A DNA stretch of 64,000 nt from Candidatus Moraniibacteriota bacterium (GTDB lineage: Bacteria; Patescibacteriota; Minisyncoccia; Moranbacterales; UBA2206), in assembly GCA_049303905.1 (NCBI GenBank), contig JBAQNP010000005.1:61655-125654 (forward strand), read 5' to 3'. The notes beneath the pieces are model-generated. The model ran no database searches. It was not told where the DNA came from and worked only from the letters and a program-made list of their open reading frames with translations. Position 1 is the stretch's first letter; each line of letters begins with the position of its first letter. A program made the translations under genes and the position numbers. Shown piece by piece: positions 1,208-61,060 of the stretch.

Positions 1208-2136
1208 TAATGTTTTTTAATAAGGAAAAATCAGAAGAAAACCCCTTTTTTGGTTTTGGTGAAAAAGAGGCGGTCTATTTTGATTTTTTCAAACAAGGCA
1301 CCCTTTCTGGTGCTGATATGTATATATCCAGTAAGGAAAAGAATTACCAAGGCGGATTAAAATTCAAAGATCCTCTCTTTTTTAATGGGAAAAAATTCAA
1401 AAAAATATCTGGCATCATAACTGCCGATGCAATTTATGATAGAAGTGGTGGATTGAAATTTCCTTCCAAAAAAATAAGTCAAAAAGTTTTGAACAACATT
1501 GCTTTCAAATCTCTTTGTTATAGTAAAAACAAAATGTATGAAACTCTTGGTGAATTTATGCCAAAAAGCTTTAAGATAAAAAATCAAAATGATTTTGAAA
1601 AAAAAATTAAATTATTTTCTCCAAATGAAATGGTTGTTATCAAGCCATCCGAAGGTTTAGGTGGAAAAGGTATTATCATAGACACTGTTTCAAATATTAT
1701 AAAATTAAAATTAGTTATTAAAAAAGAAACTGTTCTGCAAAGGTTTGTAGATACCTCTCTTGGAATAAAAAATATCACTAATGGTCGACACGATTTGAGA
1801 ATTGTTATAGTTTTTGGAAAAATAATTTTTGCCAGCCTGCGAACCCCCAAAGAAGGTAGTCTTCTTGCTAATGTCGCCCAGGGCGGAAAGATAAAAGAAA
1901 TTTCTATTAAAAAAATTCCTACTGAAGTCAAAAGTGTTGTTTTAAAAATACAAAAAGTTCTGGATAAAAAATTCAATTATCCAATTTATTCAATTGATCT
2001 TGGTATTGAAAATACCCAGCCTTTTGTTTTTGAATTAAATGATCAGATTGGTTTTCCTTCTAAGAAAATGAAAAGTTATAAGCTTTTTAATAAAGCCTTA
2101 ATTAAGTCTTTAGGAAAAATAGCAGCTCAAAAATAA
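1192..2136 (+). CDS. ATP-grasp family ligase, third in the tandem set
   Basis: Motifs MVVIKPSEGLGGKGIII, DLRIVIVFGK, ANVAQGGKI and SIDLGIE… fit an ATP-grasp protein. It overlaps the upstream gene by 16 nt, consistent with an operon. Confidence 0.55.
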   Translation: MRKKIIMFFNKEKSEENPFFGFGEKEAVYFDFFKQGTLSGADMYISSKEKNYQGGLKFKDPLFFNGKKFKKISGIITADAIYDRSGGLKFPSKKISQKVLNNIAFKSLCYSKNKMYETLGEFMPKSFKIKNQNDFEKKIKLFSPNEMVVIKPSEGLGGKGIIIDTVSNIIKLKLVIKKETVLQRFVDTSLGIKNITNGRHDLRIVIVFGKIIFASLRTPKEGSLLANVAQGGKIKEISIKKIPTEVKSVVLKIQKVLDKKFNYPIYSIDLGIENTQPFVFELNDQIGFPSKKMKSYKLFNKALIKSLGKIAAQK

Positions 2137-2206
2137 CTTTGCCTTGATAACTTTTCTCTTTTATAATAGAATATAAGATGCTTTATAAATAAGCTAAATA
2201 AATTGT

Positions 2207-4765
2207 ATGTATATCTTCAGCCCTAAAAATTCTACCGGATCATCCGGCAAAAAACGTTTTAAAATTAATTGGAAATTCCTACGAAAATCGGCTTTGATTT
2301 TTTTTGGCGCTATCTTGCTTTTTGTTATTGCGGTTTTCGCTTGGTTTGCCAAGGATCTTCCAAGCCCTGGGAATCTGAAGAATCGCGTCGTCATTCAATC
2401 AACTAAGATCTATGATCGCAGTGGAAATCATATTCTTTATGAAGTCCACGGAGAAGAAAAAAGAACGGAAATCCCCTTTTCCCAAATGCCGGAAAGTTTG
2501 CGTTATGCTACTATCGCCCTGGAAGATCAAAGTTTCTATAATCATATCGGTATTCAACCGAAAAGTATTTTGCGCGCTGCTCTAAAGGATGTTTTCAAGT
2601 TTGGCGCTTCTCAAGGTGGATCAACTATCACCCAGCAACTTATCAAGCAATCCCTCCTGACCTCAGAAAAAACTTTCACAAGAAAAATAAAAGAAGTTAT
2701 TCTGGCTATCGAACTAGAACAAAAATTTTCCAAAGACGAAATCTTAGCCATGTATCTTAACGAGATTCCTTATGGCTCTAATGCTTATGGCGTTGAAGCG
2801 GCCGCCCAAACTTTTTTTGGTAAACATGCCAGCGAACTAACACTGGATGAATCCGCTATCTTAGCTTCCCTACCTCAAGCGCCTTCTCGATATTCACCTT
2901 ATGGAACCCACACAGAAAACCTCAAGGCTCGTCAAGAGTATGCATTGAGTCAAATGGCTCGCTTAGGTTATATAACTCAAGATCAAGCCAATGAAGCAAA
3001 GGCAGTGGATATTTTTTCTAAGATAAAAACTTTTTCTGATAATATCAGTGCCCCACATTTCGTAATGTATATTAAAGAATCTTTAGAAAAAAAATATGGG
3101 GCTGAGGCGGTTGAACAAGGTGGACTAAAAGTTTATACCACCCTTGATTGGGATAAGCAAAAAATCGCTGAGGAAGCCATCAAAAACCACAGTGAAAAAA
3201 ATGCCACCACCTACAAGGCCAACAATCAGGCACTTGTGGCGATGGATCCAAAAACTGGTCAGATTTTAGCCATGGTAGGTTCAAAAGATTATTTTGGCAA
3301 AGCCGTTCCTGCCGGTTGCGTGTCTGGAAAAAATTGTAAGTTTGAAGGCAATTTCAATGTGGCTACTGCTCTTCGCCAACCCGGCTCATCCTTTAAGCCC
3401 TATGTCTATCTAACCGCATTTTCCAAAGGCTATACCCCAGAAACAAATCTTTGGGATGTAGACACTAATTTTTCTACTGATGATGGAAAAGAATATAATC
3501 CAAAAAATTATGACGGCGAAAATCGAGGTTTACTTAAGATGAAAGACGCGTTAGCAATGTCACTTAATGTTCCTGCAGTAAAAACACTTTATCTCGCTGG
3601 GGTGCAAGAATCCATAGATACAGCTCATAAAATGGGTATCACGACCCTAAAAAATCCTAAAGATTATGGTCTTTCTTTAGTTCTTGGTGGAGGTGAGGTA
3701 AAATTACTTGATCATGTTAATGCTTTTTCCACCTTTGCTACAGGCGGAATTCATCATTCCACTGTTTCTGTTTTAAAAGTTGAAAGCGGATCAGGTGAAA
3801 TTTTAGAAGAATATAAACCGAGCGACGGACAAAGAGTGATCGAAGAAAAACATGTCGCGATGATAGACTACGTTTTATCCACTAATGAACTTCGCGCTCC
3901 GGTATTTGGAGAAAACAATCCACTCAAATTTGAAAATCGTCCTGTGGCAGCTAAAACTGGCACTACCAATGAATGGCGCGATGGTTGGACTGTTGGGTAT
4001 ACTCCATCTTTAGTCGCGGGTGTTTGGGCAGGGAATAATGATAATTCCATAATGGCCGAAGGGGCGGATGGATCCTATGTTGCCGCACCAATCTGGCGTG
4101 AATTTATGGAAAAATCTTTAGTTAATTATGATATTGAAAAATTTCCGGAATACAAAAAAGATGAAGAAGAAACAGGAAAAGATGTGCTAGATGGAAAACT
4201 TGATGACAAAAAAGAAATCCGCGTCTGTAAGATTCCCGGCTCTGACGATTATTGTTTAGCTAATGATAATTGCCCAGAATCTGAAAGAGAGAAAAAGAAA
4301 TTCGCCGACGCGCATTCTATTTTATATTATGTAAAAAAAGATGATCCCCGTGGAGACAAACCAGAAAAACCCGAGGATGATCCGCAGTTTAAGGGTTGGG
4401 AAAAAGCCATTGAAAAATGGTTGGACAAAAAAGAAGGTTATTCTTCTCGACCAACTCCAGAAAAAGAATGTCGGTCAGATGATTTTAAGGATTTTGATCC
4501 AAGTATAAAAATATCAGCGCCTTCTAGTGTTAGCTCTTCTTCTTTTACTATAAAAGTAAAAGCAGATGCGCCATTTGGAGTGGATAAGATAACTTTGTCT
4601 ATTGAAGGCGAGGAAGTTAAATCATCCTCTGAATCCTCTTTTAGTTATGACTATTCAGTTCCTGATTCCAAGAAAAATACTACTCTTTCAATTAAGGCCA
4701 CTGTCAAAGATAAAAATGGCGACAGTGATTCCGATAACACATCCGTGAAAACAAATATTCCCTAA
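2207..4765 (+). CDS. Class A penicillin-binding protein (PBP1A: transglycosylase plus transpeptidase) with a C-terminal Ig-like extension
   Basis: N-terminal TM segment. GT51 motifs (EDQSFYNHIGI, GGSTITQQL). Transpeptidase motifs SSFKP (SxxK) and KTGTT. The Ser/Thr-rich C-terminus has Big-like repeats. Confidence 0.85.
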   Translation: MYIFSPKNSTGSSGKKRFKINWKFLRKSALIFFGAILLFVIAVFAWFAKDLPSPGNLKNRVVIQSTKIYDRSGNHILYEVHGEEKRTEIPFSQMPESLRYATIALEDQSFYNHIGIQPKSILRAALKDVFKFGASQGGSTITQQLIKQSLLTSEKTFTRKIKEVILAIELEQKFSKDEILAMYLNEIPYGSNAYGVEAAAQTFFGKHASELTLDESAILASLPQAPSRYSPYGTHTENLKARQEYALSQMARLGYITQDQANEAKAVDIFSKIKTFSDNISAPHFVMYIKESLEKKYGAEAVEQGGLKVYTTLDWDKQKIAEEAIKNHSEKNATTYKANNQALVAMDPKTGQILAMVGSKDYFGKAVPAGCVSGKNCKFEGNFNVATALRQPGSSFKPYVYLTAFSKGYTPETNLWDVDTNFSTDDGKEYNPKNYDGENRGLLKMKDALAMSLNVPAVKTLYLAGVQESIDTAHKMGITTLKNPKDYGLSLVLGGGEVKLLDHVNAFSTFATGGIHHSTVSVLKVESGSGEILEEYKPSDGQRVIEEKHVAMIDYVLSTNELRAPVFGENNPLKFENRPVAAKTGTTNEWRDGWTVGYTPSLVAGVWAGNNDNSIMAEGADGSYVAAPIWREFMEKSLVNYDIEKFPEYKKDEEETGKDVLDGKLDDKKEIRVCKIPGSDDYCLANDNCPESEREKKKFADAHSILYYVKKDDPRGDKPEKPEDDPQFKGWEKAIEKWLDKKEGYSSRPTPEKECRSDDFKDFDPSIKISAPSSVSSSSFTIKVKADAPFGVDKITLSIEGEEVKSSSESSFSYDYSVPDSKKNTTLSIKATVKDKNGDSDSDNTSVKTNIP

Positions 4766-7285: not shown

Positions 7286-8230
7286 TTATCCTTTATTTTT
7301 CTTAAGAAAATCATGAATTGCGCGCGCGGAAATTGCACCTTCGGAGGCAGCAGTAATCACTTGGCGAAATTTATCTGAGCCATCTGTGATATCACCAGCT
7401 GAAAAAACTCCTGCTACATTTGTCGCGCCATTTTTTTGAATTTTAATATAACCGCTTTCATCCAATTTGATTCCTAATTCACTAAAATATTCCGTCGCCG
7501 GATCCGAGCCAGCTTCGATAAAAAGTCCGTCTAAGTTTAATTCTTTTGAATTTTTATGTTCTCGGTCTAGTTTTACTTTTTCTAATTTTTGCTGGCCTAA
7601 AATTTCCACTACATTAGTTTCATATAACACTTCAATTTTCGGATTTTTCAAAATTAAATTTACCCAGAATGGCTCAGCGCGAAGTTCGGTTTTTCGATAA
7701 ATTAAATATACCTTCTGCGCTAAATCCGCTAAGTATAATGTAGCGGTCGCCGCGCTATCTGATCCACCAATTACGCCCACGATTTTATTTTTATAAAAAA
7801 ATCCATCACAAGTAGCACAATATGAAACACCTTTCCCAATAAATTCTTTTTCTCCAATAATATTTAATTTTCTTTTTTTTGTGCCAGTCGCTAAAAGAAT
7901 TGTTCGCGCTTGCAAGGTTTTTTTATTCGCTAAGATTATAGAAAAAATATTATTTTCTTTTTTTATTTCTTCCACTATATCTGGCAAAATTTCCACCCCA
8001 TATTTTTTGGCATGATTTCCCCATTTTTGACTAAAATCAAATCCGCTCATATCTTCCATCCCAGGATAGTTGTCAATTTTATGCGTCTCACTAATTTGCC
8101 CACCTAAAATAGCCCCAATAATAAGATGCTTTATCCCGTACCGCGAAGCGTAGATTGACGCTGCAAGTCCTGCCGGCCCCGCGCCAATTATTATTAGATC
8201 GTGAATTTTATTTTCTGTTTCATGTTTCAT
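7286..8230 (-). CDS. trxB: Thioredoxin-disulfide reductase
   Basis: FAD motif GAGPAG, redox-active CATCDG, NAD(P) motif GGSDSA. Confidence 0.9.
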   Translation of the reverse strand: MKHETENKIHDLIIIGAGPAGLAASIYASRYGIKHLIIGAILGGQISETHKIDNYPGMEDMSGFDFSQKWGNHAKKYGVEILPDIVEEIKKENNIFSIILANKKTLQARTILLATGTKKRKLNIIGEKEFIGKGVSYCATCDGFFYKNKIVGVIGGSDSAATATLYLADLAQKVYLIYRKTELRAEPFWVNLILKNPKIEVLYETNVVEILGQQKLEKVKLDREHKNSKELNLDGLFIEAGSDPATEYFSELGIKLDESGYIKIQKNGATNVAGVFSAGDITDGSDKFRQVITAASEGAISARAIHDFLKKNKG

Positions 8231-18853: not shown

Positions 18854-18955
18854 TGTCATTCCTGCGAAAGCAGGAATCTAGTGTAGAAACTTAGTGATTT
18901 GAGACTGGATTCCTGCTTTCGCAGGAATGACAATATACACAAGCCCTTCAGGAGG
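18854..18955. terminator. Cluster of GC-rich hairpins between convergent genes (bidirectional terminators)
   Basis: ATTCCTGCGAAAGCAGGAAT and ATTCCTGCTTTCGCAGGAAT together form an outer TGTCAT…ATGACA inverted repeat. A third hairpin is AGCCCTTCAGGAGGGCT. Confidence 0.6.
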
Positions 18956-32385: not shown

Positions 32386-32492
32386 TTATCAAATATCTCT
32401 GGTTTGAAATTTTTTACTTAAAAATTCATTGAAAATTGAAAACTGAAGCTTGTTTTTGTATTTTGTTCGTTTCATTCGCATGTGGTTCGCCC

Positions 32493-32533
32493 GCCTCGAC
32501 TCGCGGAGACCGCTTGTCGACGCGAGGCGGGTA
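32493..32533. repeat. GC-rich ~42-bp palindromic element (CCCGCCTCG…GTCGACG…CGAGGCGGG)
   Basis: It stands out in an AT-rich genome. Near-identical copies at 43778-43819 and 60967-61013 (reverse complement). Confidence 0.75.
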
Positions 32534-32551
32534 GATTTGCGTCGCTATATA

Positions 32552-36492: not shown

Positions 36493-37368
36493 TTAATCTT
36501 GAGATTGCTTCGCTTTGCTCGCAATGACAGGTAGGGAGTTGGCTATTTTTTTCCAATCCTCCACGCTTAGTTCTTGTGCTCTTTGTTTTGGCGTAATGCC
36601 AATTTTTTTTAGTTTTTCCTCTACTTCTTTTTTGTCTAATTTGAGACTAGCGGATAAATTATTGACCAGTGTTTTTCTTTTAGACGAAAATCCCGCCTTA
36701 ACAATTCTAAAAAAATTCCCAGCCCCCTTTTCTTTAGTAAGGGGAATGGTTGTGGACGAGGTAGTGGATTGAAAAGGAGTAATTTTTATCACTGCCGAAT
36801 CCACTTCTGGCACTGGAAAAAAACTTTCTTTGTCAACATAAAATAGTAATTCCGGCTTGGCATAGTATTGCACACTTACAGCTAGAATACTCATTTGTCC
36901 GGGATTACTACAAATACGCTCCGCTACTTCCTTTTGCACCATCAGAATCATTTCACTTGGTGGAAACTTAGTTTCTAGAAAGAGTTGGATAATGGGCGAA
37001 GTAATATAATATGGAATATTGGCAACAACTTTGTAATGAATTGTGCCACCTTCTCCTTTGTAAGGAGAGGGGCTGGGGGTGAGGTTTGAAATGATTTCTG
37101 GCAAATTAATTTTTAAAATATCAGCATTTATTATTTCTATTTTTTTACTATCCTTATATTGTTTTTTTAATTTATTAGCCAGAGCTCCATCAACCTCGAT
37201 AGCCAAAACCTTGCCAGCATGCTTAAATAATTTTTCCGTGAGCACACCTTTTCCTGGTCCAATTTCAATTACAAAATTGTCCGATTTTAAGTTGGCGGAT
37301 TGAATAATTTTTTCTAAAACAGTTGTATCTCTTAGAAAATTTTGTCCTAAAGATTTTATTGGTTTCAT
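36493..37368 (-). CDS. rsmA: 16S rRNA (adenine1518/1519-N6)-dimethyltransferase RsmA/KsgA, carrying an in-frame palindromic insertion
   Basis: SLGQNFL, EIGPGKGVLT and NIPYYITSPI are KsgA motifs. The segment LTPSPSPYKGEGG is encoded by the ~40-bp GC-rich palindromic element at 37048-37088. Confidence 0.85.
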   Translation of the reverse strand: MKPIKSLGQNFLRDTTVLEKIIQSANLKSDNFVIEIGPGKGVLTEKLFKHAGKVLAIEVDGALANKLKKQYKDSKKIEIINADILKINLPEIISNLTPSPSPYKGEGGTIHYKVVANIPYYITSPIIQLFLETKFPPSEMILMVQKEVAERICSNPGQMSILAVSVQYYAKPELLFYVDKESFFPVPEVDSAVIKITPFQSTTSSTTIPLTKEKGAGNFFRIVKAGFSSKRKTLVNNLSASLKLDKKEVEEKLKKIGITPKQRAQELSVEDWKKIANSLPVIASKAKQSQD

Positions 37369-43740: not shown

Positions 43741-43855
43741 ATTTACGAAAATACGAATTAAACTAAATTACTAATTCGCCCAGCCTCGACTCGCGAAGAC
43801 GCTCGTCGACGCGAGGCGGGTACTTTCGCTAGATTCGTATTTTCGTAAGGATAAC
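43741..43855. repeat. Composite repeat: a TACGAA hairpin element (as at 28705-28797) interrupted by the GC-rich 42-bp palindrome
   Basis: The outer ~75 bp align almost base-for-base with 28721-28797. The inner block 43778-43819 matches 32493-32533. Confidence 0.8.
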
Positions 43856-46127: not shown

Positions 46128-46215
46128 ATTTGTCATGCTGAATTTATTTCAGCATCTCTTCTTTAGATCCTGAAACCCGCCTGCCGGCGAGGCATGGCAA
46201 GTTCAGGATGACAAG
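46128..46215. terminator. Nested-hairpin terminator element (TGTCATGCTGAA…TTCAGCATCT…ATCCTGAAC…GTTCAGGATGACAA) downstream of pnp
   Basis: A second copy lies at 57951-58015. This copy also carries a GC-rich palindrome insert (CCGCCTGCCGGCGAGGC). Confidence 0.65.
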
Positions 46216-50066: not shown

Positions 50067-51161
50067 TTATTTGTGAAGTTTCCGCATTTCTCTAAATTTC
50101 AGGACAACTTCACTTTCTGATTTGTGACGGAAGGCATAAGGACTTCTTTTTCGCGTCACTGAGAAAAAAGCTCCCATCATACCTTGAATGATTTCAAAAG
50201 GTATGAGACCTTTTTCATAAAGATGTATTGCCCCATTAATTTTCCTGAGATAATTTCTGGGCAAAAAAGTTTCTCCTCTAAATTTCAATCCCACGCCGGT
50301 GATTATAATCTGGCGTTTCTCTGCCAAATCAATTACGGCTGATTTTTTGTGACTGATTTGCAGTCCGGCATCAATAATTACTTGGCGAATTTTTTTTCGC
50401 ACTCTTTTTCCGATTGGCTTCAAAGAAGAAAAAGCCAAATCATCAAGAAATCTGGTAAAACGAAGATCATTTTTTTCACAAATCTCCGCTAATGGCGCAT
50501 CTAATAAATACGCCGCAAAGATGTTTGCTAGATCTACTGAAGCTGGCGCGCCGGTTTTTAGTCCCGTGCCAGACTTCAAGAAGCAATATTTTTTCAAGAA
50601 TTTGGAGAGTTTTTTTCTATTTTCCCAAGTTGTCATACAGAGAATATCCAGTAGTCTATCTCCGTCAATGTTATTATAGAAGCTATGAATATCGAGGAGA
50701 TAAAAATATCTTCCGTTCTTATGCTTTTCTACATTTCTCAGTGGACTCCAGCCGGTGATTCCACCGGTGGCAAAACGAAGGCCAACTGGAAGCTCGTTTA
50801 TCAATTCTTTACTTCTCAGAACATTTCGAACAAATGCGCGATGAATTAAGCGCATAGTGAGGTTTGGATTGTGGATAGTCCGAAATTTACGGGTATTTTT
50901 TATTGGATTGAAATCTTCCAACTTATATACTCTGAATTTCGGAGACTGAAAAGTGAAAAAACAGAAATAAAAGTAGAAAATCCAAAAATTCAAACTTGCT
51001 TGAATTTCCTTGACTTCGAAATCCGGTTTTTTTCCGAAAAAAATCTGATATAAATTGTCAAATAACATAGGTCGCCCCCTTATTATTGAATGTTTTTTTA
51101 TTTGTTTTAGTTTAAAGCAGAATAGCAGAACAGGGCATAATTGGCAAGTTTTTGGCGACAA
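50067..51161 (-). CDS. Retron-type reverse transcriptase
   Basis: RT motif 1 RKFRTIHNP. Motif 2 TGGITGWSPLRNVEKH (the retron NAxxH). Motif 3 YFYLLDIHSFY. Motif 4 GLKTGAPASVDLANIF. Motif 5 FLDDLAFS (the YADD-equivalent). The retron VTG motif appears as IITGVG. The true start may be Met32. Confidence 0.7.
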   Translation of the reverse strand: MSPKTCQLCPVLLFCFKLKQIKKHSIIRGRPMLFDNLYQIFFGKKPDFEVKEIQASLNFWIFYFYFCFFTFQSPKFRVYKLEDFNPIKNTRKFRTIHNPNLTMRLIHRAFVRNVLRSKELINELPVGLRFATGGITGWSPLRNVEKHKNGRYFYLLDIHSFYNNIDGDRLLDILCMTTWENRKKLSKFLKKYCFLKSGTGLKTGAPASVDLANIFAAYLLDAPLAEICEKNDLRFTRFLDDLAFSSLKPIGKRVRKKIRQVIIDAGLQISHKKSAVIDLAEKRQIIITGVGLKFRGETFLPRNYLRKINGAIHLYEKGLIPFEIIQGMMGAFFSVTRKRSPYAFRHKSESEVVLKFREMRKLHK

Positions 51162-51190: not shown

Positions 51191-54100
51191 ATGCATGAAA
51201 TATTGGAAAAACTTAATGCTCCGCAAAGAGAGGCGGTGACGACGACGGAAGGGCCGGTTCTCATTATTGCGGGGGCAGGATCGGGGAAAACGCGCGCACT
51301 AACACACAGGGTGGCGTATTTGATTTGTGAAAAAAAGATTAGTCCTCGAAGAATTTTGGCGGTGACTTTTACTAATAAAGCGGCGGGAGAGATGAAGGAA
51401 AGGATTAGGGAATTACTTAGTGCAAATACGCGAATTGATGCGAATGATGCGAATGACCTCACCCCCAGCCCCTCTCCTTATAAAGGAGAGGGTAGCCAAT
51501 ATGATATGCCAACAGTCGGAACTTTTCATTCTATCTGCGTGAGGATTTTGCGTCATGAGATTGAGAAGATGGGATATAAAAGCTCTTTTAATATTTTTGA
51601 TGATCAAGATCAGCTGGCTCTCATGAAAAAAGTGATGAAAGAAATGGAAATTAACACCGATCAATTCAAACCAAAAGCAATTCTTGGCGCAATTTCCAAT
51701 GCGAAAAATGAACTCAAGAGTGCGGAGGAATTTTTAGCAGGAGTGGGTGGATATTTTGAAGAGATGGTGGCCAAGATTTATCTGAACTATCAAAAAAAAT
51801 TGAAAGATCAAGGTGCTTTGGATTTTGATGATATCTTGATGATTATAGTGAAGCTTTTCCAAAAGTTTCCAGAAGTTTTGGAAAAGTATCAGAATTTTTT
51901 TCAGTATATTATGGTAGACGAATATCAAGATACTAACCGCGCGCAATATTTGTTGGTAAAATTGTTGTCGGAAAAATATAAAAATTTGTGTGTGGTGGGT
52001 GATGATTGGCAATGTTTTCCGAGGGGAATAAAAATATCAGTGGATGACAAAAAAACCAAAAATATTGAGAAAATAAGAAAAGGAGATGCAATTATGTCAG
52101 CTTCAGGGCAAGGTGAGATTTGCCCTCAATCGATAGAAAGAAATAAAAAATCTAAATTCAAGGGAGAGCTAATAAAAATCACGACAAAATCAGGTAAAAG
52201 TTTAATGGCTACACCTAACCATATTCTTTTTTCTAAATTATCTTTAAGCGCAAATATATTCTATGTATATTTAATGTATAAAAAAGAGATAGGATATCGT
52301 ATTGGAATGGTAAAGGGAATTAGGATAGTTAAATCAAATGGACTTAATGCGGGATTAAATGTCAGGGCTAATCAAGAACGAGCAGACAGGATGTGGATTT
52401 TGAAAATTTGCCAGACAAAAACCCAAGCGCAATACTGGGAGCAATATCTTGGATTTTTTTATGGTATTCCGACGTTGGTTTTTATTGCGGGCAGTGGAAG
52501 AAAAATGAAATTTGAGCAAAAATATTTGGATGATTTGTATAAAAATATTAATACCTTAGAAAGAGTTAAGAAAATATTTTTAGATTTTAATTTAAATTTT
52601 GATTATCCTCATCATATTCCGCAATCAACCATAAGAAGTGGAATAAAAAGAGTTTCTGTTAACTTTACTTTATTTAGCGATCGCAGAAAAGGAATTTCAA
52701 TTAGCAATTGGGGAAGACACAGGATAAGCATTAATTCGAATGACAAAGAGACTAAAAAAATACTAGAGTTAGCTGGTTTCAAAACGAGAAAAGGAAAGAA
52801 GAATGATTGGCGATTGGAAATTTCTAGCAGAAAATATGAGGAAATGGAAAAGGTTCTAAATAAAATTATAAAAATTATTCCTAATATAGTGGTCACCAAA
52901 AGAGCGCTCTTAGCGGGAGGCAAAAGATTTTATTTTCAACCGGCGGGACATATCAGAGAAACAATGCTCGTGCCTATTTTAGAAAAAGGAAAAATTATTG
53001 AAGAGGAGATAGAAAAAGTTGAAAAAATAAAATATGCTGGTCCGGTTTATGATTTAGATGTAGCAAATGTGCATAATTATATTGCAAATAATTTTGTGGT
53101 GCATAATTCAATTTATGGATGGCGAGGAGCCAATATTCAAAATATTTTAGATTTTGAAAAAGATTATCCGCAGGCGCGCGTGATTAAGTTGGAGCAGAAT
53201 TATCGCTCGACGCAAAATATTTTAGACGCGGCTTATGGTGTGATTTCAAAAAACATTAATCGCAAGGACAAAAAAATTTGGACGGATAATCAAAGCGGGC
53301 ATCTTCTTTCTAGTTTTGAAGCAGAAGATGAAAAAGAAGAAGCACAGTTTATTGTGGATGAGATAAAAAAAATATGTCATCCTGAACTTGTTTCAAAATC
53401 TAATGAGGAGATTCCGGATCAAGTCCGGAATGACAAATACAGATTTTCCGATTTTGTAGTTCTCTATCGAACCAATGCGCAGTCTCGAATGATTGAAGAA
53501 GCGATGCTTCGAAATTCTATTCCGTACCGAATTATTGGCGGGGTAAAATTCTACCAAAGAAAAGAAATTAAAGATGTGATTGCATATCTGCGAGTGATTA
53601 ATAATTTTAATGATGAAACTTCGCTGGAACGAATTATTAATGAACCGAAGCGAGGGATAGGCGATGTAACACTGAGCAAGTGGATAAAAATAGCTCGATT
53701 AGATGAAAATAATTTAATAGATGCAGGGATTAAAATTAAACAGTTGCAAGATACAAAATACAAGATACAAGATACAAGACTGGATGCAATTGTGAAATTT
53801 TGCGAATTCATTCAGAGAATGTCAGAGCTCAAAGAAAAATTATCTCTTACTGATTTTATCCAAAAAATTTATAGTGAATCGGGGTATGAAAGATTTCTTA
53901 TGGACGGAACTGAAGAGGGAGAAATGAGAAATGAAAATGTTAGAGAGCTTCTCACTGTTGCAAAGAAATATGACGAGTATGAACCAATGGAAAGTTTGAA
54001 ATTATTTTTAGAAGAAGTAGCTTTGGTTTCTGACACGGATAATATTGATCAAGCTGTTGATGCGGTACATCTTATGACACTTCACAGTGCTAAAGGTTTA

Positions 54101-54577
54101 GAATTTAAAATTGTTTTTATTGCTGGGCTCGAAGAAGGGATTTTGCCACATTCCAGAAGTATGCTTAGCGACTCTGAAATGGAAGAAGAGAGACGCCTGA
54201 TGTATGTGGGAATCACGCGCGCTATGGAAAAAGTCTATTTGCTTTTTACTCGTATGCGAAATATTTTTGGTTCCACACAGATTAATGCTTCTTCAAGATT
54301 TTTGGAAGATGTGCCGGAGCATCTACTTGAGTCATATAACATGAAGCATGAAACATGTAACAAAAAACAAAGTGATAAGATTAGGCAAGGTTCGGAAAAA
54401 AATGCTTCATGCTTCATGCTTCATGCTTCATGTTTTAAGGACGGTGATCGGGTGCGACATGAGGTTTTTGGTGATGGCTTGATTGTTGCGAGTCAAGGCG
54501 ACATAATCACCGTCGCCTTTTCCAAGGCGGGACTCAAAAAACTTTCTACTTCAATCGCACACTTAGAAAAAATATAA
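51191..54577 (+). CDS. pcrA: ATP-dependent DNA helicase PcrA/UvrD, interrupted by an intein and carrying an in-frame palindromic insertion
   Basis: Walker A AGAGSGKTR. Motifs Ia, II (DEYQD) and IV-VI are present. Motif III reads VVGDDWQ|intein|SIYGWRGA. The N-terminal insert TPSPSPYKGEG is encoded by the palindromic element. Confidence 0.85.
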   Translation: MHEILEKLNAPQREAVTTTEGPVLIIAGAGSGKTRALTHRVAYLICEKKISPRRILAVTFTNKAAGEMKERIRELLSANTRIDANDANDLTPSPSPYKGEGSQYDMPTVGTFHSICVRILRHEIEKMGYKSSFNIFDDQDQLALMKKVMKEMEINTDQFKPKAILGAISNAKNELKSAEEFLAGVGGYFEEMVAKIYLNYQKKLKDQGALDFDDILMIIVKLFQKFPEVLEKYQNFFQYIMVDEYQDTNRAQYLLVKLLSEKYKNLCVVGDDWQCFPRGIKISVDDKKTKNIEKIRKGDAIMSASGQGEICPQSIERNKKSKFKGELIKITTKSGKSLMATPNHILFSKLSLSANIFYVYLMYKKEIGYRIGMVKGIRIVKSNGLNAGLNVRANQERADRMWILKICQTKTQAQYWEQYLGFFYGIPTLVFIAGSGRKMKFEQKYLDDLYKNINTLERVKKIFLDFNLNFDYPHHIPQSTIRSGIKRVSVNFTLFSDRRKGISISNWGRHRISINSNDKETKKILELAGFKTRKGKKNDWRLEISSRKYEEMEKVLNKIIKIIPNIVVTKRALLAGGKRFYFQPAGHIRETMLVPILEKGKIIEEEIEKVEKIKYAGPVYDLDVANVHNYIANNFVVHNSIYGWRGANIQNILDFEKDYPQARVIKLEQNYRSTQNILDAAYGVISKNINRKDKKIWTDNQSGHLLSSFEAEDEKEEAQFIVDEIKKICHPELVSKSNEEIPDQVRNDKYRFSDFVVLYRTNAQSRMIEEAMLRNSIPYRIIGGVKFYQRKEIKDVIAYLRVINNFNDETSLERIINEPKRGIGDVTLSKWIKIARLDENNLIDAGIKIKQLQDTKYKIQDTRLDAIVKFCEFIQRMSELKEKLSLTDFIQKIYSESGYERFLMDGTEEGEMRNENVRELLTVAKKYDEYEPMESLKLFLEEVALVSDTDNIDQAVDAVHLMTLHSAKGLEFKIVFIAGLEEGILPHSRSMLSDSEMEEERRLMYVGITRAMEKVYLLFTRMRNIFGSTQINASSRFLEDVPEHLLESYNMKHETCNKKQSDKIRQGSEKNASCFMLHASCFKDGDRVRHEVFGDGLIVASQGDIITVAFSKAGLKKLSTSIAHLEKI
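52013..53107 (+). mobile_element. Intein (365 aa) inside pcrA motif III, with a central endonuclease-like region
   Basis: Starts at Cys1 (CFPRG…). Block B TPNH. C-terminal blocks VYDLDVANVHNYIANNFVVHN followed by +1 Ser. Excision restores the canonical GDDxQSIYGWRGA. Confidence 0.8.
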
Positions 54578-56026: not shown

Positions 56027-57013
56027 ATGTCGCATAATATGAATATTAGAGATTATAAAACTCAATTTTTGGAATATTTGGAAGTGGAAAAACAGCGTTC
56101 ACCTAAAACGATTGAAAATTATGATCGTTATTTGGAAAAATTCTTAGTTTGGGCAAAAATTAGTGATCCAAAGGGTATTAATGATGATCTAATCCGAAGT
56201 TTTCGCCTCTATCTTAATCGATTTCAAAATGAAAAAGGCCAAAATATCAAGAGAATCACGCAAAATTATTACATTATTGCTATTCGATGTTTTTTAAAGT
56301 ATCTAGCCAAGAGAGACGTCAAAACTTTGCAGGCGGAAAAGGTAGAAATTGGAAAAACGCCAGAGCGAGAGGTGGATTTCTTGGAAAATAGCGAAGTGGA
56401 GAGGATTTTGGAGTCAGCTGGTGGGGTAAGCTTCAAATCTTTGCGTGATCGAGCCATTATGGAATTGCTTTTCTCAGCTGGACTTCGGGTTTCGGAATTA
56501 ACTAGCATTAATCGGGATAAATTGAATCTGAAAAGTGGAGAATTAAGTGTGCGAGGCAAAGGCAATAAGATTCGGGTAGTTTTTATCTCAGACACAGCTT
56601 CGGCGTCTCTTCGAGAATATCTCAAGAAAAGGGAAGATATTGATCCAGCTTTATTTGTGCGAGATGTGAAAGGTTTGGCGAAATTTAAGAAAAAAAATAA
56701 ATCCGCTGTAGAGACGAGGCAGTGCCTCGTCTCTATCAAGGATGATAATAATCTCCGCCTCACTCCGCGTTCTATTCAGCGAATTGTGAAATACTATGCT
56801 CTAAAGGCCGGAATCGTAAAAGATGTCCATCCGCATACCTTGCGTCATTCTTTTGCTACGGATCTTTTGATGAATGGAGCGGATATTCGCTCTGTTCAAG
56901 CAATGCTTGGCCATGCTTCGATCAATACTACTCAAATTTATACTCATGTTACCAATCCCCATCTCAAAGAGGTCCATCAGGCCTTCCATGCCAGAAGAAG
57001 GAAAAAAGATTGA
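56027..57013 (+). CDS. xerD: Tyrosine site-specific recombinase of the XerC/XerD family, with a palindromic in-frame insert
   Basis: Catalytic box HPHTLRHSFATDLLMNGADIRSVQAMLGHASINTTQIYTHV. The N-terminal SAM-like domain is present. A 27-bp perfect palindrome at 56709-56735 encodes AVETRQCLV. Confidence 0.8.
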   Translation: MSHNMNIRDYKTQFLEYLEVEKQRSPKTIENYDRYLEKFLVWAKISDPKGINDDLIRSFRLYLNRFQNEKGQNIKRITQNYYIIAIRCFLKYLAKRDVKTLQAEKVEIGKTPEREVDFLENSEVERILESAGGVSFKSLRDRAIMELLFSAGLRVSELTSINRDKLNLKSGELSVRGKGNKIRVVFISDTASASLREYLKKREDIDPALFVRDVKGLAKFKKKNKSAVETRQCLVSIKDDNNLRLTPRSIQRIVKYYALKAGIVKDVHPHTLRHSFATDLLMNGADIRSVQAMLGHASINTTQIYTHVTNPHLKEVHQAFHARRRKKD

Positions 57014-57126: not shown

Positions 57127-57214
57127 CAGCATAAGAAATATGATAGAGTTAAAGAGTCGAGAAAGTACATTTAAAAAGATAATGGGACCATAGCTCAGTG
57201 GTAGAGCGCGCGGC

Positions 57215-57589
57215 TCAAGTAAATAATTCTAAACTGTGTTTTGGATGATGGAGTTCGGCATGACAATTGTTGCAAACAAGGATGCACTTTTTAAGTTCGG
57301 TATCAATCCAGGAAAGTTTGCGATTTGACAGGGATCTGATATCAAGCTGGAAATGTTTTTCTTTTGGATTTTTGTGATGAAAAGTCAAGGCGGCATAATT
57401 TTTTTTATACCCGCAGACACAGCAACATCCTCCAAGTTTTTTCACACAACTAATCTTTCTCTTCCAGCCTCGGGCTTGTTGAAGATGATAGGATTGGTTG
57501 ACGCTATTTTTGCAAGTGGGAGAACAATAACGTGTTTGTCTGCCCCCAAGAGGGTGATTACAAACTACGCAGGTTATGATTTTATTCAT
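57215..57589 (-). CDS. HNH endonuclease (homing-endonuclease-like), encoded antisense inside the tRNA intron
   Basis: Zn-ribbon CVVCNH…YCSPTC. HNH core CCCVCGY…LTFHHKNP…KH…N…LVCNNCHAELHH. Confidence 0.6.
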   Translation of the reverse strand: MNKIITCVVCNHPLGGRQTRYCSPTCKNSVNQSYHLQQARGWKRKISCVKKLGGCCCVCGYKKNYAALTFHHKNPKEKHFQLDIRSLSNRKLSWIDTELKKCILVCNNCHAELHHPKHSLELFT

Positions 57590-57838
57590 AATCTAATTAT
57601 AACACAAAATGAATAATTGCAACAGGGCTGTTTGAGAAGTAATTTTCAAATGAATTCTGTCAAATTCGGGGAAATCTTAAGTTTTTATTTTATATAAAAA
57701 AATGACAATCCCGAGCCAAGTCCCGACGCTAAGTCGGGAAAGGTGTAGAGACTAGATGGCAGACATCCCGAGTATTTGGGATGAAGGGATAGTCCAGCTT
57801 ACAAATTCGAAAGAAGTTGCGAAAGCAATAGTGAGATG
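57216..57838 (+). mobile_element. Group I intron (IC3-like, tRNA-intron type) with an antisense HNH ORF
   Basis: The core matches cyanobacterial-type tRNA introns: CAATCCCGAGCCAAGTCC, GGGAAAGGTGTAGAGACTAGATGGCAG, and the P7 pair AGACUA/UAGUCC. It ends in omega-G at 57838. Confidence 0.65.
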
Positions 57839-57884
57839 CATAACCGCTTGGTCGAAGGTTCGAATCCTTCTGGTCCCACAAAAA

Positions 57885-57920: not shown

Positions 57921-57950
57921 TCTGGAATAATATAATTTTGTCATGCTGAA

Positions 57951-58015
57951 CTTGTTTCAGCATCTTAATCGTTAGAGATCCTGAAACGAGTTCAGGATGA
58001 CAATCGAAGATTAAT
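57951..58015. repeat. Second copy of the TGTCATGCTGAA…GTTCAGGATGACAA nested-hairpin element
   Basis: It aligns with 46128-46215 minus the GC-rich insert. Confidence 0.75.
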
Positions 58016-60956: not shown

Positions 60957-60966
60957 AATATTTTTA

Positions 60967-61060
60967 CCTGCCTCGCGTCGACGAGCGGTCGTTTCCGCGA
61001 GTCGAGGCTGGCGAATTACGAATCTATACAAATATACTAATGTACGAATTATATAAAAAC
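60967..61060. repeat. GC-rich 42-bp palindrome (reverse-complement copy) followed by a TACGAAT-type repeat, upstream of ftsH
   Basis: cctgcctcgcgtcgacgagcggtcgtttccgcgagtcgaggctgg, then cgaattacgaatctatacaaatatactaatgtacgaatt. Confidence 0.75.

Follow-up and report, generated by a model that had tools for sequence, protein, structure and literature searches.

Why should one short GC-rich palindromic segment be read, in frame, by two unrelated genes of the same reduced genome? The question is raised by a stretch of 64,000 nucleotides (nt) of contig JBAQNP010000005.1, from a Candidatus Moraniibacteriota bacterium, which was analysed as a whole and is called the window here. A segment of 41 nt lies within its helicase gene pcrA and, inverted, within ksgA, which encodes the 16S rRNA dimethyltransferase. 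This segment is an element that has been inserted into surface loops of PcrA and KsgA within this Candidatus Moranbacteria lineage, and its architecture, as read from the sequence, places it in a register-shifted subfamily of the BoxC / PIT ('potential intrastrand triplex') / TM class of repeats. Taken as a whole, the explanation that we consider probable joins this BoxC-type identity to copying by host replication and repair with no enzyme of the element's own, to an insertion that would be blind to reading frame, and to an encoded peptide that would be a mere passenger.

The region at issue in pcrA (51437-51500, plus strand) reads GATGCGAATGATGCGAATGACCTCACCCCCAGCCCCTCTCCTTATAAAGGAGAGGGTAGCCAAT; the element, its blocks and its host gene are distributed as follows.

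51191-54577, plus strand: host gene pcrA/uvrD, 1128 amino acids, a UvrD/PcrA helicase by Pfam.
51437-51456, plus strand: tandem repeat of GATGCGAAT, 2.2 copies, peptide DANDAND, adjoining the 5' end of the element.
51456-51496, plus strand: pcrA copy of the repeat, ACCTCACCCCCAGCCCCTCTCCTTATAAAGGAGAGGGTAGC, 41 nt (nhmmer with the family profile, E = 6e-14).
51457-51465, plus strand: tail block CCTCACCCC, whose complement on the G-rich strand, GGGGTGAGG, is the third-strand (reverse-Hoogsteen) block.
51466-51468, plus strand: spacer (loop 2) CAG, 3 nt, a variable part of the family.
51469-51477, plus strand: pyrimidine block CCCCTCTCC, the 5' hairpin arm.
51478-51484, plus strand: AT-rich loop 1, TTATAAA, whose outer T/A pairs lengthen the stem to 10 bp and leave an ATA loop.
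51485-51493, plus strand: purine block GGAGAGGGT, the 3' hairpin arm, with G as its final base in the family consensus.

The C-rich strand of this copy is the mRNA strand, and its translation is LTPSPSPYKGEG (PcrA residues 90-101), between helicase motifs Ia and Ib. A first-pass annotation of the locus had indeed proposed a GC-rich palindromic element in frame in pcrA, and the long open reading frame (ORF) bears this out; the perfect palindrome that it described is a 10-nt inverted repeat, perfect in its arms but with a 3-nt spacer (CCCTCTCCTT-ATA-AAGGAGAGGG), and the contrast in G+C, given there as 60-70% against ~30%, amounts to 59% in the element (24/41, counted by hand) against 34.9% in the window. 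The second copy and its host gene are arranged as follows.

36493-37368, minus strand: host gene ksgA/rsmA, 291 amino acids, the 16S rRNA dimethyltransferase.
37045-37085, minus strand: ksgA copy of the repeat, a 41-nt inverted pair with 51456-51496 (nhmmer E = 1.8e-11).
37048-37056, G-rich strand (plus): pyrimidine (Y) block ACCTTCTCC, with two changes.
37057-37063, G-rich strand (plus): loop.
37064-37072, G-rich strand (plus): purine (R) block GGAGAGGGG, intact.
37073-37075, G-rich strand (plus): spacer CTG.
37076-37084, G-rich strand (plus): third-strand block GGGGTGAGG, intact.

Here the plus strand of the window is the G-rich strand. The two copies agree at 38 of 41 positions (93% complementary in the repeat finder), so the near-identity first reported stands, with its coordinates of 37048-37088 shifted by 3 nt, and ksgA translates its copy as the same peptide LTPSPSPYKGEG (KsgA residues 96-107), as had been claimed for both genes. 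The window has two occurrences of the 21-mer CCTCACCCCCAGCCCCTCTCC, for which 100 shuffles give an expectation of 0.00, and a search of the 64 kb with the nhmmer family profile gave the pcrA and ksgA copies and no third or decayed one. The proposed check of RNA hairpin stability gave predicted energies of -18.2 kcal/mol (z -2.5) for pcrA and -16.6 kcal/mol (z -4.0) for ksgA; as DNA, both copies are predicted to fold with -8.6 to -10.5 kcal/mol (z -2.3 to -4.5). The first-pass annotation overlooked the tail, a conserved C-rich stretch of 12 nt that forms the third block of the motif.

It is this third block that connects the element to a known class. E. coli BoxC is the same repeat as PIT (Hoyne & Maher) and TM_ECO (Holder 2015, PMC4666352), and has been treated by Bachellier in the 1990s, Hoyne & Maher 2000/2002 and Holder et al. 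2015 (PMC4666352). The window element has the three-block design CCTCACCCC-CAG-CCCCTCTCC-loop-GGAGAGGG; set in the layout of the copy in the hrpB-mrcB spacer of E. coli K-12, ACCCTCACCC-TAA-CCCTCTCCC-TCAA-GGGAGAGGG, the pcrA copy becomes ACCTCACCCC-CAG-CCCCTCTCC-TTATAAA-GGAGAGGG. On the G-rich strand the order is CCC(C)TCTCC, loop, GGAGAGGGG, CTG, GGGGTGAGG, where the tail GGGGTGAGG mirrors the purine block GGAGAGGGG, so that 9/9 antiparallel triads are allowed (G.GC, T.AT, A.AT). In the pcrA copy, 8/9 positions form Watson-Crick pairs; the ksgA copy has 7/9 and one G.T. All components of a class II purine motif are thus in place: pyrimidines, the purine arm that pairs with them, and a third block that mirrors this arm. 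The loops are short as well, with 3 nt in loop 2 and 3 nt in loop 1 given the predicted 10-bp stem, the published limits being 1-6 nt for ITxF and, for TM_ECO, 3-6 nt in loop 1 and 3 nt in loop 2 (PMC4666352).

The family as a whole consists of many similar, dispersed copies whose stems are more conserved than their loops: in an alignment of 100 sequences the C blocks are invariant, and spacer and loop vary. Counted with the hairpin fixed by the search pattern, 117 distinct metagenome copies comprise 91 with three blocks, 11 with four and 15 with the hairpin only. Among the 81 copies that have a 5' tail, 74 show CCTCACCCC and 5 show CCTCTCCCC there; the sole variable base of the tail, the fifth, faces an A-T pair and is A in 74, T in 5 and never G or C; the spacer measures 3 nt in 51 of the same 81 copies, TAA (12) and CAG (7) being its commonest variants, and the family consensus ends in GGAGAGGGG(A/G). 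These statistics argue that the 12-nt tail is the third block of the motif and not mere flank. As the blocks constrain one another, the independent information comes to about one 9-mer plus spacing, which tempers, and does not remove, the surprise of finding the same sequence across phyla.

The resemblance to BoxC/TM_ECO extends from the succession of Y block, loop, R block, 3-nt spacer and mirror G-rich block to the AGA/TGA core flanked by G runs, with T.AT, A.AT and G.GC triads, and to the spacer types, TAA on the C-rich strand corresponding to the TTA of E. coli type A. Shared, too, are stems more conserved than loops, the occurrence of single copies and inverted pairs, unstable neighbouring sequence and the lack of a linked mobility gene. 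The differences are a register shift of one base (E. coli has GGGAGAGGG/GGGTGAGGG for the GGAGAGGGG/GGGGTGAGG of the window), the AT-rich loop 1 of the window element, its host, a Patescibacteria genome of 35% G+C, and its location, in frame within essential genes, whereas the E. coli copies are 'always intergenic' (PMC4666352). This intergenic location is a descriptive trait and not a structural one, and neither window copy shares it, both lying inside ORFs. Neither the window element nor its copies at 18 loci of other phyla match an Rfam family, the best score being 19 bits, for wcaG, against a gathering score of 42. As a side possibility, the 21-mer could form a G-quadruplex or an i-motif, which its G runs permit, more so in high-GC copies, although the conserved TCA/TCT interruptions and the mirror symmetry would then be unexplained.

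That the segment is an insertion follows from the alignment of orthologues, which the first-pass annotation had put forward as a check and which confirms its statement that homologues of both proteins have a short loop at this position. In PcrA, the peptide is absent from all 79 best matches aligned and from the relative L208; Bacillus-type matches have ~11 residues at the insert position, and the structure 1PJR (G. stearothermophilus PcrA) bridges residues 82-88 opposite residues 78-108 of the query. Three metagenome contigs that carry clear pcrA orthologues from the lineage of the window (L214, L297 and L305) share its insertion site, and L208, without the element, offers a near-empty site that differs by a net 36 nt exactly (counted on the alignment). 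Neither window copy is flanked by a direct repeat, and the filled/near-empty comparisons show no target-site duplication or target motif.

KsgA gives the same picture. The window protein is 100% identical to one from a Candidatus Moranbacteria metagenome-assembled genome (MAG), and among the 32 orthologues compared, those at 77-82% identity are without the peptide. The insert occupies the loop between helix 89-96 and strand 113-117, after '...INLPEII', and this loop is found in several states: a short native sequence (e.g., KNNNFQK in L206); another palindromic repeat (e.g., VETRHCLVST, encoded by GTAGAGACGAGGCACTGCCTCGTCTCTAC, in L207), with further unrelated repeat inserts in the form of GHSMSIMDIECP, HSERSEA..., AYKLEA and SLPHP.FGHPLP.GE; and, in one orthologue of 66% identity, a decayed relative of the same element, TPNPSPYQEEG. 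At the DNA level the differing inserts lie at the same edge of the loop. An AlphaFold model of KsgA, with a mean pLDDT (predicted local distance difference test) of 82.7, falls to 60 for residues 101-110 against ~90 in the core, and its confidence also falls at two other non-conserved segments, 203-212 and 283-291.

Segments overlapping the latter two deserve a note of their own. KsgA residues 200-217 (36718-36771, minus strand; QSTTSSTTIPLTKEKGAG) and the tail, residues 279-291 (36496-36534, minus strand; LPVIASKAKQSQD), have a pLDDT <50 and align with sites at which orthologues show different peptides of repeat-like character (PSPVASTRHPLPKGEE; SFPRKRESS); both resemble earlier insertions derived from repeats. 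In PcrA, the 5' end of the gene around the Walker A region (51217-51311, plus strand) reaches 73% G+C across 95 nt, and as the orthologous region of L208 is likewise GC-rich, the high G+C seems to belong to the gene itself rather than to a foreign insert. PcrA is also interrupted by an intein (residues 275-639; 52013-53107, plus strand; Pfam Intein_splicing and Hint) in the helicase motif '...VVGDDWQ|C...HN|SIYGWRGAN', a site that is uninterrupted, as DDWQGIYSWRGAN, in the close orthologues L297 and L305.

Once inserted, the element has been preserved to an unexpected degree. Over 38 nt, the copies of the window, L214 and L297 are identical at 38/38 positions, about 12 of them synonymous, against 80-83% identity in the adjacent helicase coding sequence of the same orthologues (P 2e-4 to 9e-4 per pair); the pcrA set was the only one to qualify, no second orthologous set with diverged flanks being found. 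The identity ends a few bases beyond the element, and the L305 copy differs by its spacer alone, CAG being replaced by TAA, both common types. Since an insert sitting passively in a loop should diverge at the synonymous rate or faster, this points to short-patch conversion or to selection on sequence or structure.

The flanks behave quite differently. The tandem duplication reported beside the element is real (Tandem Repeats Finder: 51430-51456, period 9, 2.9 copies, 94% matches) but is no part of the insertion: GATGCGAAT is present in two copies in the window and L214, in one copy in L297, and in none in L305, which has other sequence, or L208. Being polymorphic, one-sided and single in L297, the duplication arose after the insertion and is not a target-site duplication. 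We read it as slippage beside a structure-forming motif; TM_ECO has itself been tied to local deletions, slippage and unstable flanks (Holder 2015, PMC4666352). A second repeat family, TGTCATSCTGAACTTGTTTCAGSATC..., stands in frame further along in PcrA as HPELVSKSNEEIPDQVRNDK (HPELVS..., 53378-53437, plus strand), with related copies at 46129-46157 and 57937-57965. At this second site the window and L297 share one repeat, and L305 has an unrelated insert of ~60 nt, GNRRGSFASLPHRQASAQDG, with the same boundaries; together with the KsgA loop, this indicates that inserts turn over at fixed hot spots.

How widely, then, is the element distributed, and how does it come to lie in frame? The further copies whose existence was to be checked are numerous beyond the two loci. 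The exact 21-mer is found in 85 IMG/VR viral contigs of 39-70% G+C and in at least 120 contigs of a species-representative genome set from ~11 phyla, as labelled in the database records (Chloroflexota, Pseudomonadota, Myxococcota, Bacteroidota, Cyanobacteriota, Planctomycetota, Acidobacteriota, Armatimonadota, Nitrospirota, Bipolaricaulota and Desulfobacterota), and is followed by a short loop and GGAGAGGGG in every case among the matches listed. A metagenome scan with the hairpin CCCCTCTCCTTAYAAAGGAGA added at least 120 loci. With orthologues that lack the peptide and many copies elsewhere, the two outcomes that the first-pass annotation had named as fatal to its proposal, a peptide universal among orthologues and a match private to the two loci, are not what is found.

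Within the metagenome set, 33/104 copies lie inside long ORFs, defined as those of >=150 codons that reach >=40 codons to each side of the copy. They are read in the following frames.

Frame F1, peptide LTPSPSPYKGEG: 13 copies.
Frame F2, peptide SPPAPLLIKERG: 7 copies.
Frame R1, peptide PLSFIRRGAGGEV: 8 copies.
Other frames: 5 copies, attributed to a different spacer length.

In a six-frame translation of the canonical sequence only F1, F2 and R1 are free of stop codons. As all three are used, in the proportion 13 : 7 : 8, the common frame of the two window copies is a coincidence of about one in three and gives no evidence of a preferred frame. Housekeeping hosts of in-frame copies include TsaD, LigA, MurC, SecA, DnaE, PurL, MurB, UvrC, with as many as three copies in a single gene, and LepA; by translations read by eye, in-frame copies are also present in a betaproteobacterial methionyl-tRNA synthetase (MetRS) and in apparent phage terminase and portal/head-morphogenesis genes. 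Residence in long ORFs was compared, under a room-to-judge criterion, with that of random 36-nt sites from the same contigs.

Metagenome, G+C < 0.40: elements in long ORFs 15/33 (45%), random sites 62%.
Metagenome, G+C 0.40-0.50: elements in long ORFs 14/29 (48%), random sites 60%.
Species-representative genomes, G+C < 0.50: elements in long ORFs 3/18 (17%), random sites 63%.
Viral contigs, G+C < 0.50: elements in long ORFs 13/54 (24%), random sites 52%.

Residence of this motif class in frame in essential genes is unmentioned in the papers on the class that were consulted and in what a search directed at the Candidate Phyla Radiation (CPR) returned; that open-access search, for repeat elements, gave no CPR paper. 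Two individual loci may be added. In the betaproteobacterial MAG contig L087, an ORF (1776-4515, minus strand) read by eye as a putative MetRS has tandem in-frame copies (PSPSGRGAGGEGG...), a further copy, PSPPTPLPEGEGS, and an endonuclease-like inserted domain; if this reading is correct, in-frame copies are not limited to low-GC genomes. In L088 (11-139, a Polyangiales MAG) and in a second genome contig, L195 (108-200), the C-rich half is repeated head to tail at a period of 36 nt and lacks a hairpin partner.

From these data we propose the following course of events. When single-stranded, the G-rich strand would fold as a hairpin, and its G-rich tail would lie antiparallel on the purine arm through G.GC, T.AT and A.AT triads; on this view, 5'-CCCTCTCCTTTATAAGGAGAGGGGCTGGGGGTGAGG-3' as a single strand would be expected to form a triplex and not a hairpin alone. 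The element would have no enzyme of its own and, as we suggest with modest confidence, would be copied by host replication or repair, perhaps by a switch of template, or by conversion of a short patch, at a structure-forming site that has stalled. This process might also homogenise the copies and destabilise their flanks, an instability in keeping with a 9-nt duplication that is polymorphic and with inserts that replace one another at a single site. Insertion would take no account of frame, selection sparing those inserts that are free of stops, a multiple of three in length and placed in tolerant loops, and the encoded peptide would be a tolerated passenger and not a functional motif.

As regards neighbouring genes, no mobility gene recurs within 1.2 kb of the elements (~330 loci); the recurrent neighbours are ordinary genes (MetRS, ABC transporter, GGDEF-EAL, phage terminase/portal), some of which bear in-frame copies themselves. 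In the window, a retron-type reverse transcriptase (50067-51161, minus strand; Pfam RVT_1 2e-13; PADLOC RT_II-A 1.5e-30 and RT_III-A 4e-30) is divergent from pcrA. A link between this enzyme and the element was considered and rejected: it has no homologue in 328 loci, those of the element-bearing pcrA orthologues included, and no reverse transcriptase lies near the ksgA copy.

Several points weigh against the explanation proposed here. For TM_ECO, the triplex was observed with single strands in vitro, whereas footprinting in vivo did not show it (PMC4666352). The strict TM_ECO pattern, 5'-CCCTCNCCC N3-6 GGGNGAGGG N3 GGGNGAGGG, reported from 262 proteobacterial genomes (PMC4666352), does not describe the window element, as its G/C runs are offset by one base relative to E. 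coli, with one mismatch in each of the blocks CCCTCTCCT / AGGAGAGGG / GGGTGAGGT; and with a stem of 8-9 bp (G/C blocks only) loop 1 lengthens to 7 nt. The filled/near-empty comparisons, which include no recent pair from very close strains, show no junction signature, be it target-site duplication, target motif or microhomology. The conservation statistic comes from one orthologous set, whose pairs are not independent, the taxonomy is settled for a minority of the metagenome loci, and the copying mechanism is one that we infer. Finally, a passive selfish insert should decay, and its perfect conservation could mean a function at the level of the host.

This last point leads to the view that selection keeps the element inside ORFs as a signal in the nucleic acid from which the host benefits, e.g., a site where replication, transcription or translation pauses, a hairpin for RNA processing or a hotspot of recombination by which loops are diversified. 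The 38/38 nt shared by three orthologous pcrA copies against ~20% divergence of the neighbouring helicase motifs, the block sequences conserved across phyla and the replacement of one insert by another in the same loops, between fixed boundaries, all speak for it. Short-patch gene conversion, however, accounts for the conservation equally well, and a signal of this kind sits uneasily with copies in unrelated genes, in both orientations, three frames and intergenic DNA, and with close KsgA orthologues that have no element; PIT elements in E. coli, moreover, acted neither as promoters nor as terminators and were without effect in vivo, according to Hoyne & Maher as reported in PMC4666352. We regard a host signal as unlikely. 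The sharp, constant ends of the copies and their dispersal in large numbers would suit instead a miniature transposable element, similar to MITEs (transposable elements of the miniature inverted-repeat type) or to repetitive extragenic palindromic (REP) sequences and REPINs, mobilised in trans by a transposase that recognises hairpin and tail. Y1 transposases use a conserved single-stranded tail beside a hairpin, and hairpin plus conserved tail in the element resemble such a substrate; inverted doublets 60-230 nt apart (L142, L145, L185, L118, L121, L164) recall REPINs and MITEs, and presence varies among orthologues. Yet the combination of terminal inverted repeats and target-site duplication expected of a MITE is not found, target-site duplications being absent from the window copies and from the filled/near-empty comparisons; there is no conserved GTAG/CGTC tag (the pcrA copy ends in GGGTAGC and the ksgA copy in GGTGGC), and no such motif in Di Nocera 2013 (PMC3733652). 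No transposase recurs near the ~330 loci, Holder 2015 (PMC4666352) reports no mobility gene near the E. coli copies, and the identity of old orthologous copies would be left unexplained. Transposition is possible on this evidence, if rather improbable.

Selection on the peptide itself, as a Pro-rich linker or ligand, would be suggested by the same 12 residues in two window proteins and several others, were it not that the same DNA yields SPPAPLLIKERG or PLSFIRRGAGGEV in other genes, that most copies are outside long ORFs, that orthologues do without the peptide, and that synonymous positions are frozen while model confidence over the region is low; a conserved protein motif is accordingly very hard to credit. 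A duplication private to the two loci, gene conversion from one to the other or a fault of the assembly would explain why the 64-kb window holds just two copies, and is refuted, to the point of negligible probability, by copies that number in the hundreds in genomes, metagenomes and viral contigs of independent origin and by the same pcrA insertion on three separately named metagenome contigs (L214, L297, L305).

The triplex-type repeat proposed here can also be set beside other repeats that it recalls. The first-pass annotation saw a parallel with Rickettsia palindromic elements (RPEs), and the behaviour is indeed analogous: a palindromic repeat in frame in unrelated housekeeping genes of a reduced genome, tolerated in loops and translated as an extra loop. 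The element is nevertheless no RPE, being set apart by its size of 41 nt, its host and its architecture, as RPEs measure ~100-150 bp and are Rickettsia-specific (PMC10969869, with Ogata 2000/2002 as summarised there); RPEs have no triplex-type third block, and the window family is pan-bacterial. With REP/REPIN sequences (Di Nocera 2013, PMC3733652; Bertels & Rainey 2011, PMC3116915) it shares a GC-rich hairpin of 20-40 nt with a short conserved single-stranded extension and high repetition as single copies or inverted doublets, although REPs are extragenic and lineage-specific, and no gene resembling RAYT, the transposase that mobilises them, was seen near any of the loci. The G-quadruplex/triplex repeats of methanogenic archaea (PMC8044849) likewise combine a G-rich tract with a partly complementary C-rich tract and can switch between a hairpin-triplex and a G-quadruplex, and their authors compare them with E. 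coli PIT/TM; they differ in block order, in their archaeal hosts and in that every copy reported is intergenic.

BoxC/PIT/TM motifs have been known for ~30 years, and the literature, as far as it is represented in the sources cited, gives no function, no route of spreading and an intergenic location. What is added here is a register-shifted subfamily common to many phyla and viral contigs, the in-frame copies of low-GC contigs within PcrA, KsgA, UvrC, LigA, SecA and DnaE, and orthologous copies that are identical in spite of diverging helicase surroundings. For copies in coding sequence the orthologous context can be dated, the frame acts as a filter and there are filled and empty alleles, which together offer a handle on how such elements are copied and on whether non-B DNA motifs shape proteins. 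A more speculative extension, which we hold to be doubtful, is that BoxC/triplex repeats of Patescibacteria are more than debris, enter essential genes almost as often as random sites would fall in them, are actively kept identical and act as fragile or pausing sites at which cassettes of surface loops are exchanged; if this were true, their upkeep would involve selection on DNA/RNA structure or a dedicated process of copy correction or insertion, and reduced genomes would possess a structure-driven means of diversifying protein loops. From a practical point of view, the peptides LTPSPSPYKGEG, SPPAPLLIKERG and PLSFIRRGAGGEV in metagenomic proteins should be recognised as products of the repeat and masked when homology or structure is studied, and IDANDANDLTPSPSPYK is a candidate tryptic peptide that would mark translation of the segment.

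Apart from the element, the genome holds many small repeat families. A tRNA with anticodon CAU (57184-57879, plus strand), not called by ARAGORN, is seemingly split in its anticodon loop by a group I intron of ~620 nt, with the 5' half at 57184-57217, the 3' half at ~57841-57879 and an Rfam Intron_gpI match at 57605-57819 (81.7 bits). A heptamer repeat (CATGAAR / ATGCTTC) builds the C-terminal segment NASCFMLHASCF of PcrA (54332-54437, plus strand), with 4.4 perfect copies at 54402-54432 and kin near 8207, 42409 and 61075. Another GC-rich palindromic family, ...CGCCTCGACTCGCG-N-GTCGACGCGAGGCGGG..., has three copies, at 32473-32547, 43773-43833 and 60962-61016, and other GC-rich hairpins stand singly at 46163-46212, 56702-56733 and 18854-18932.

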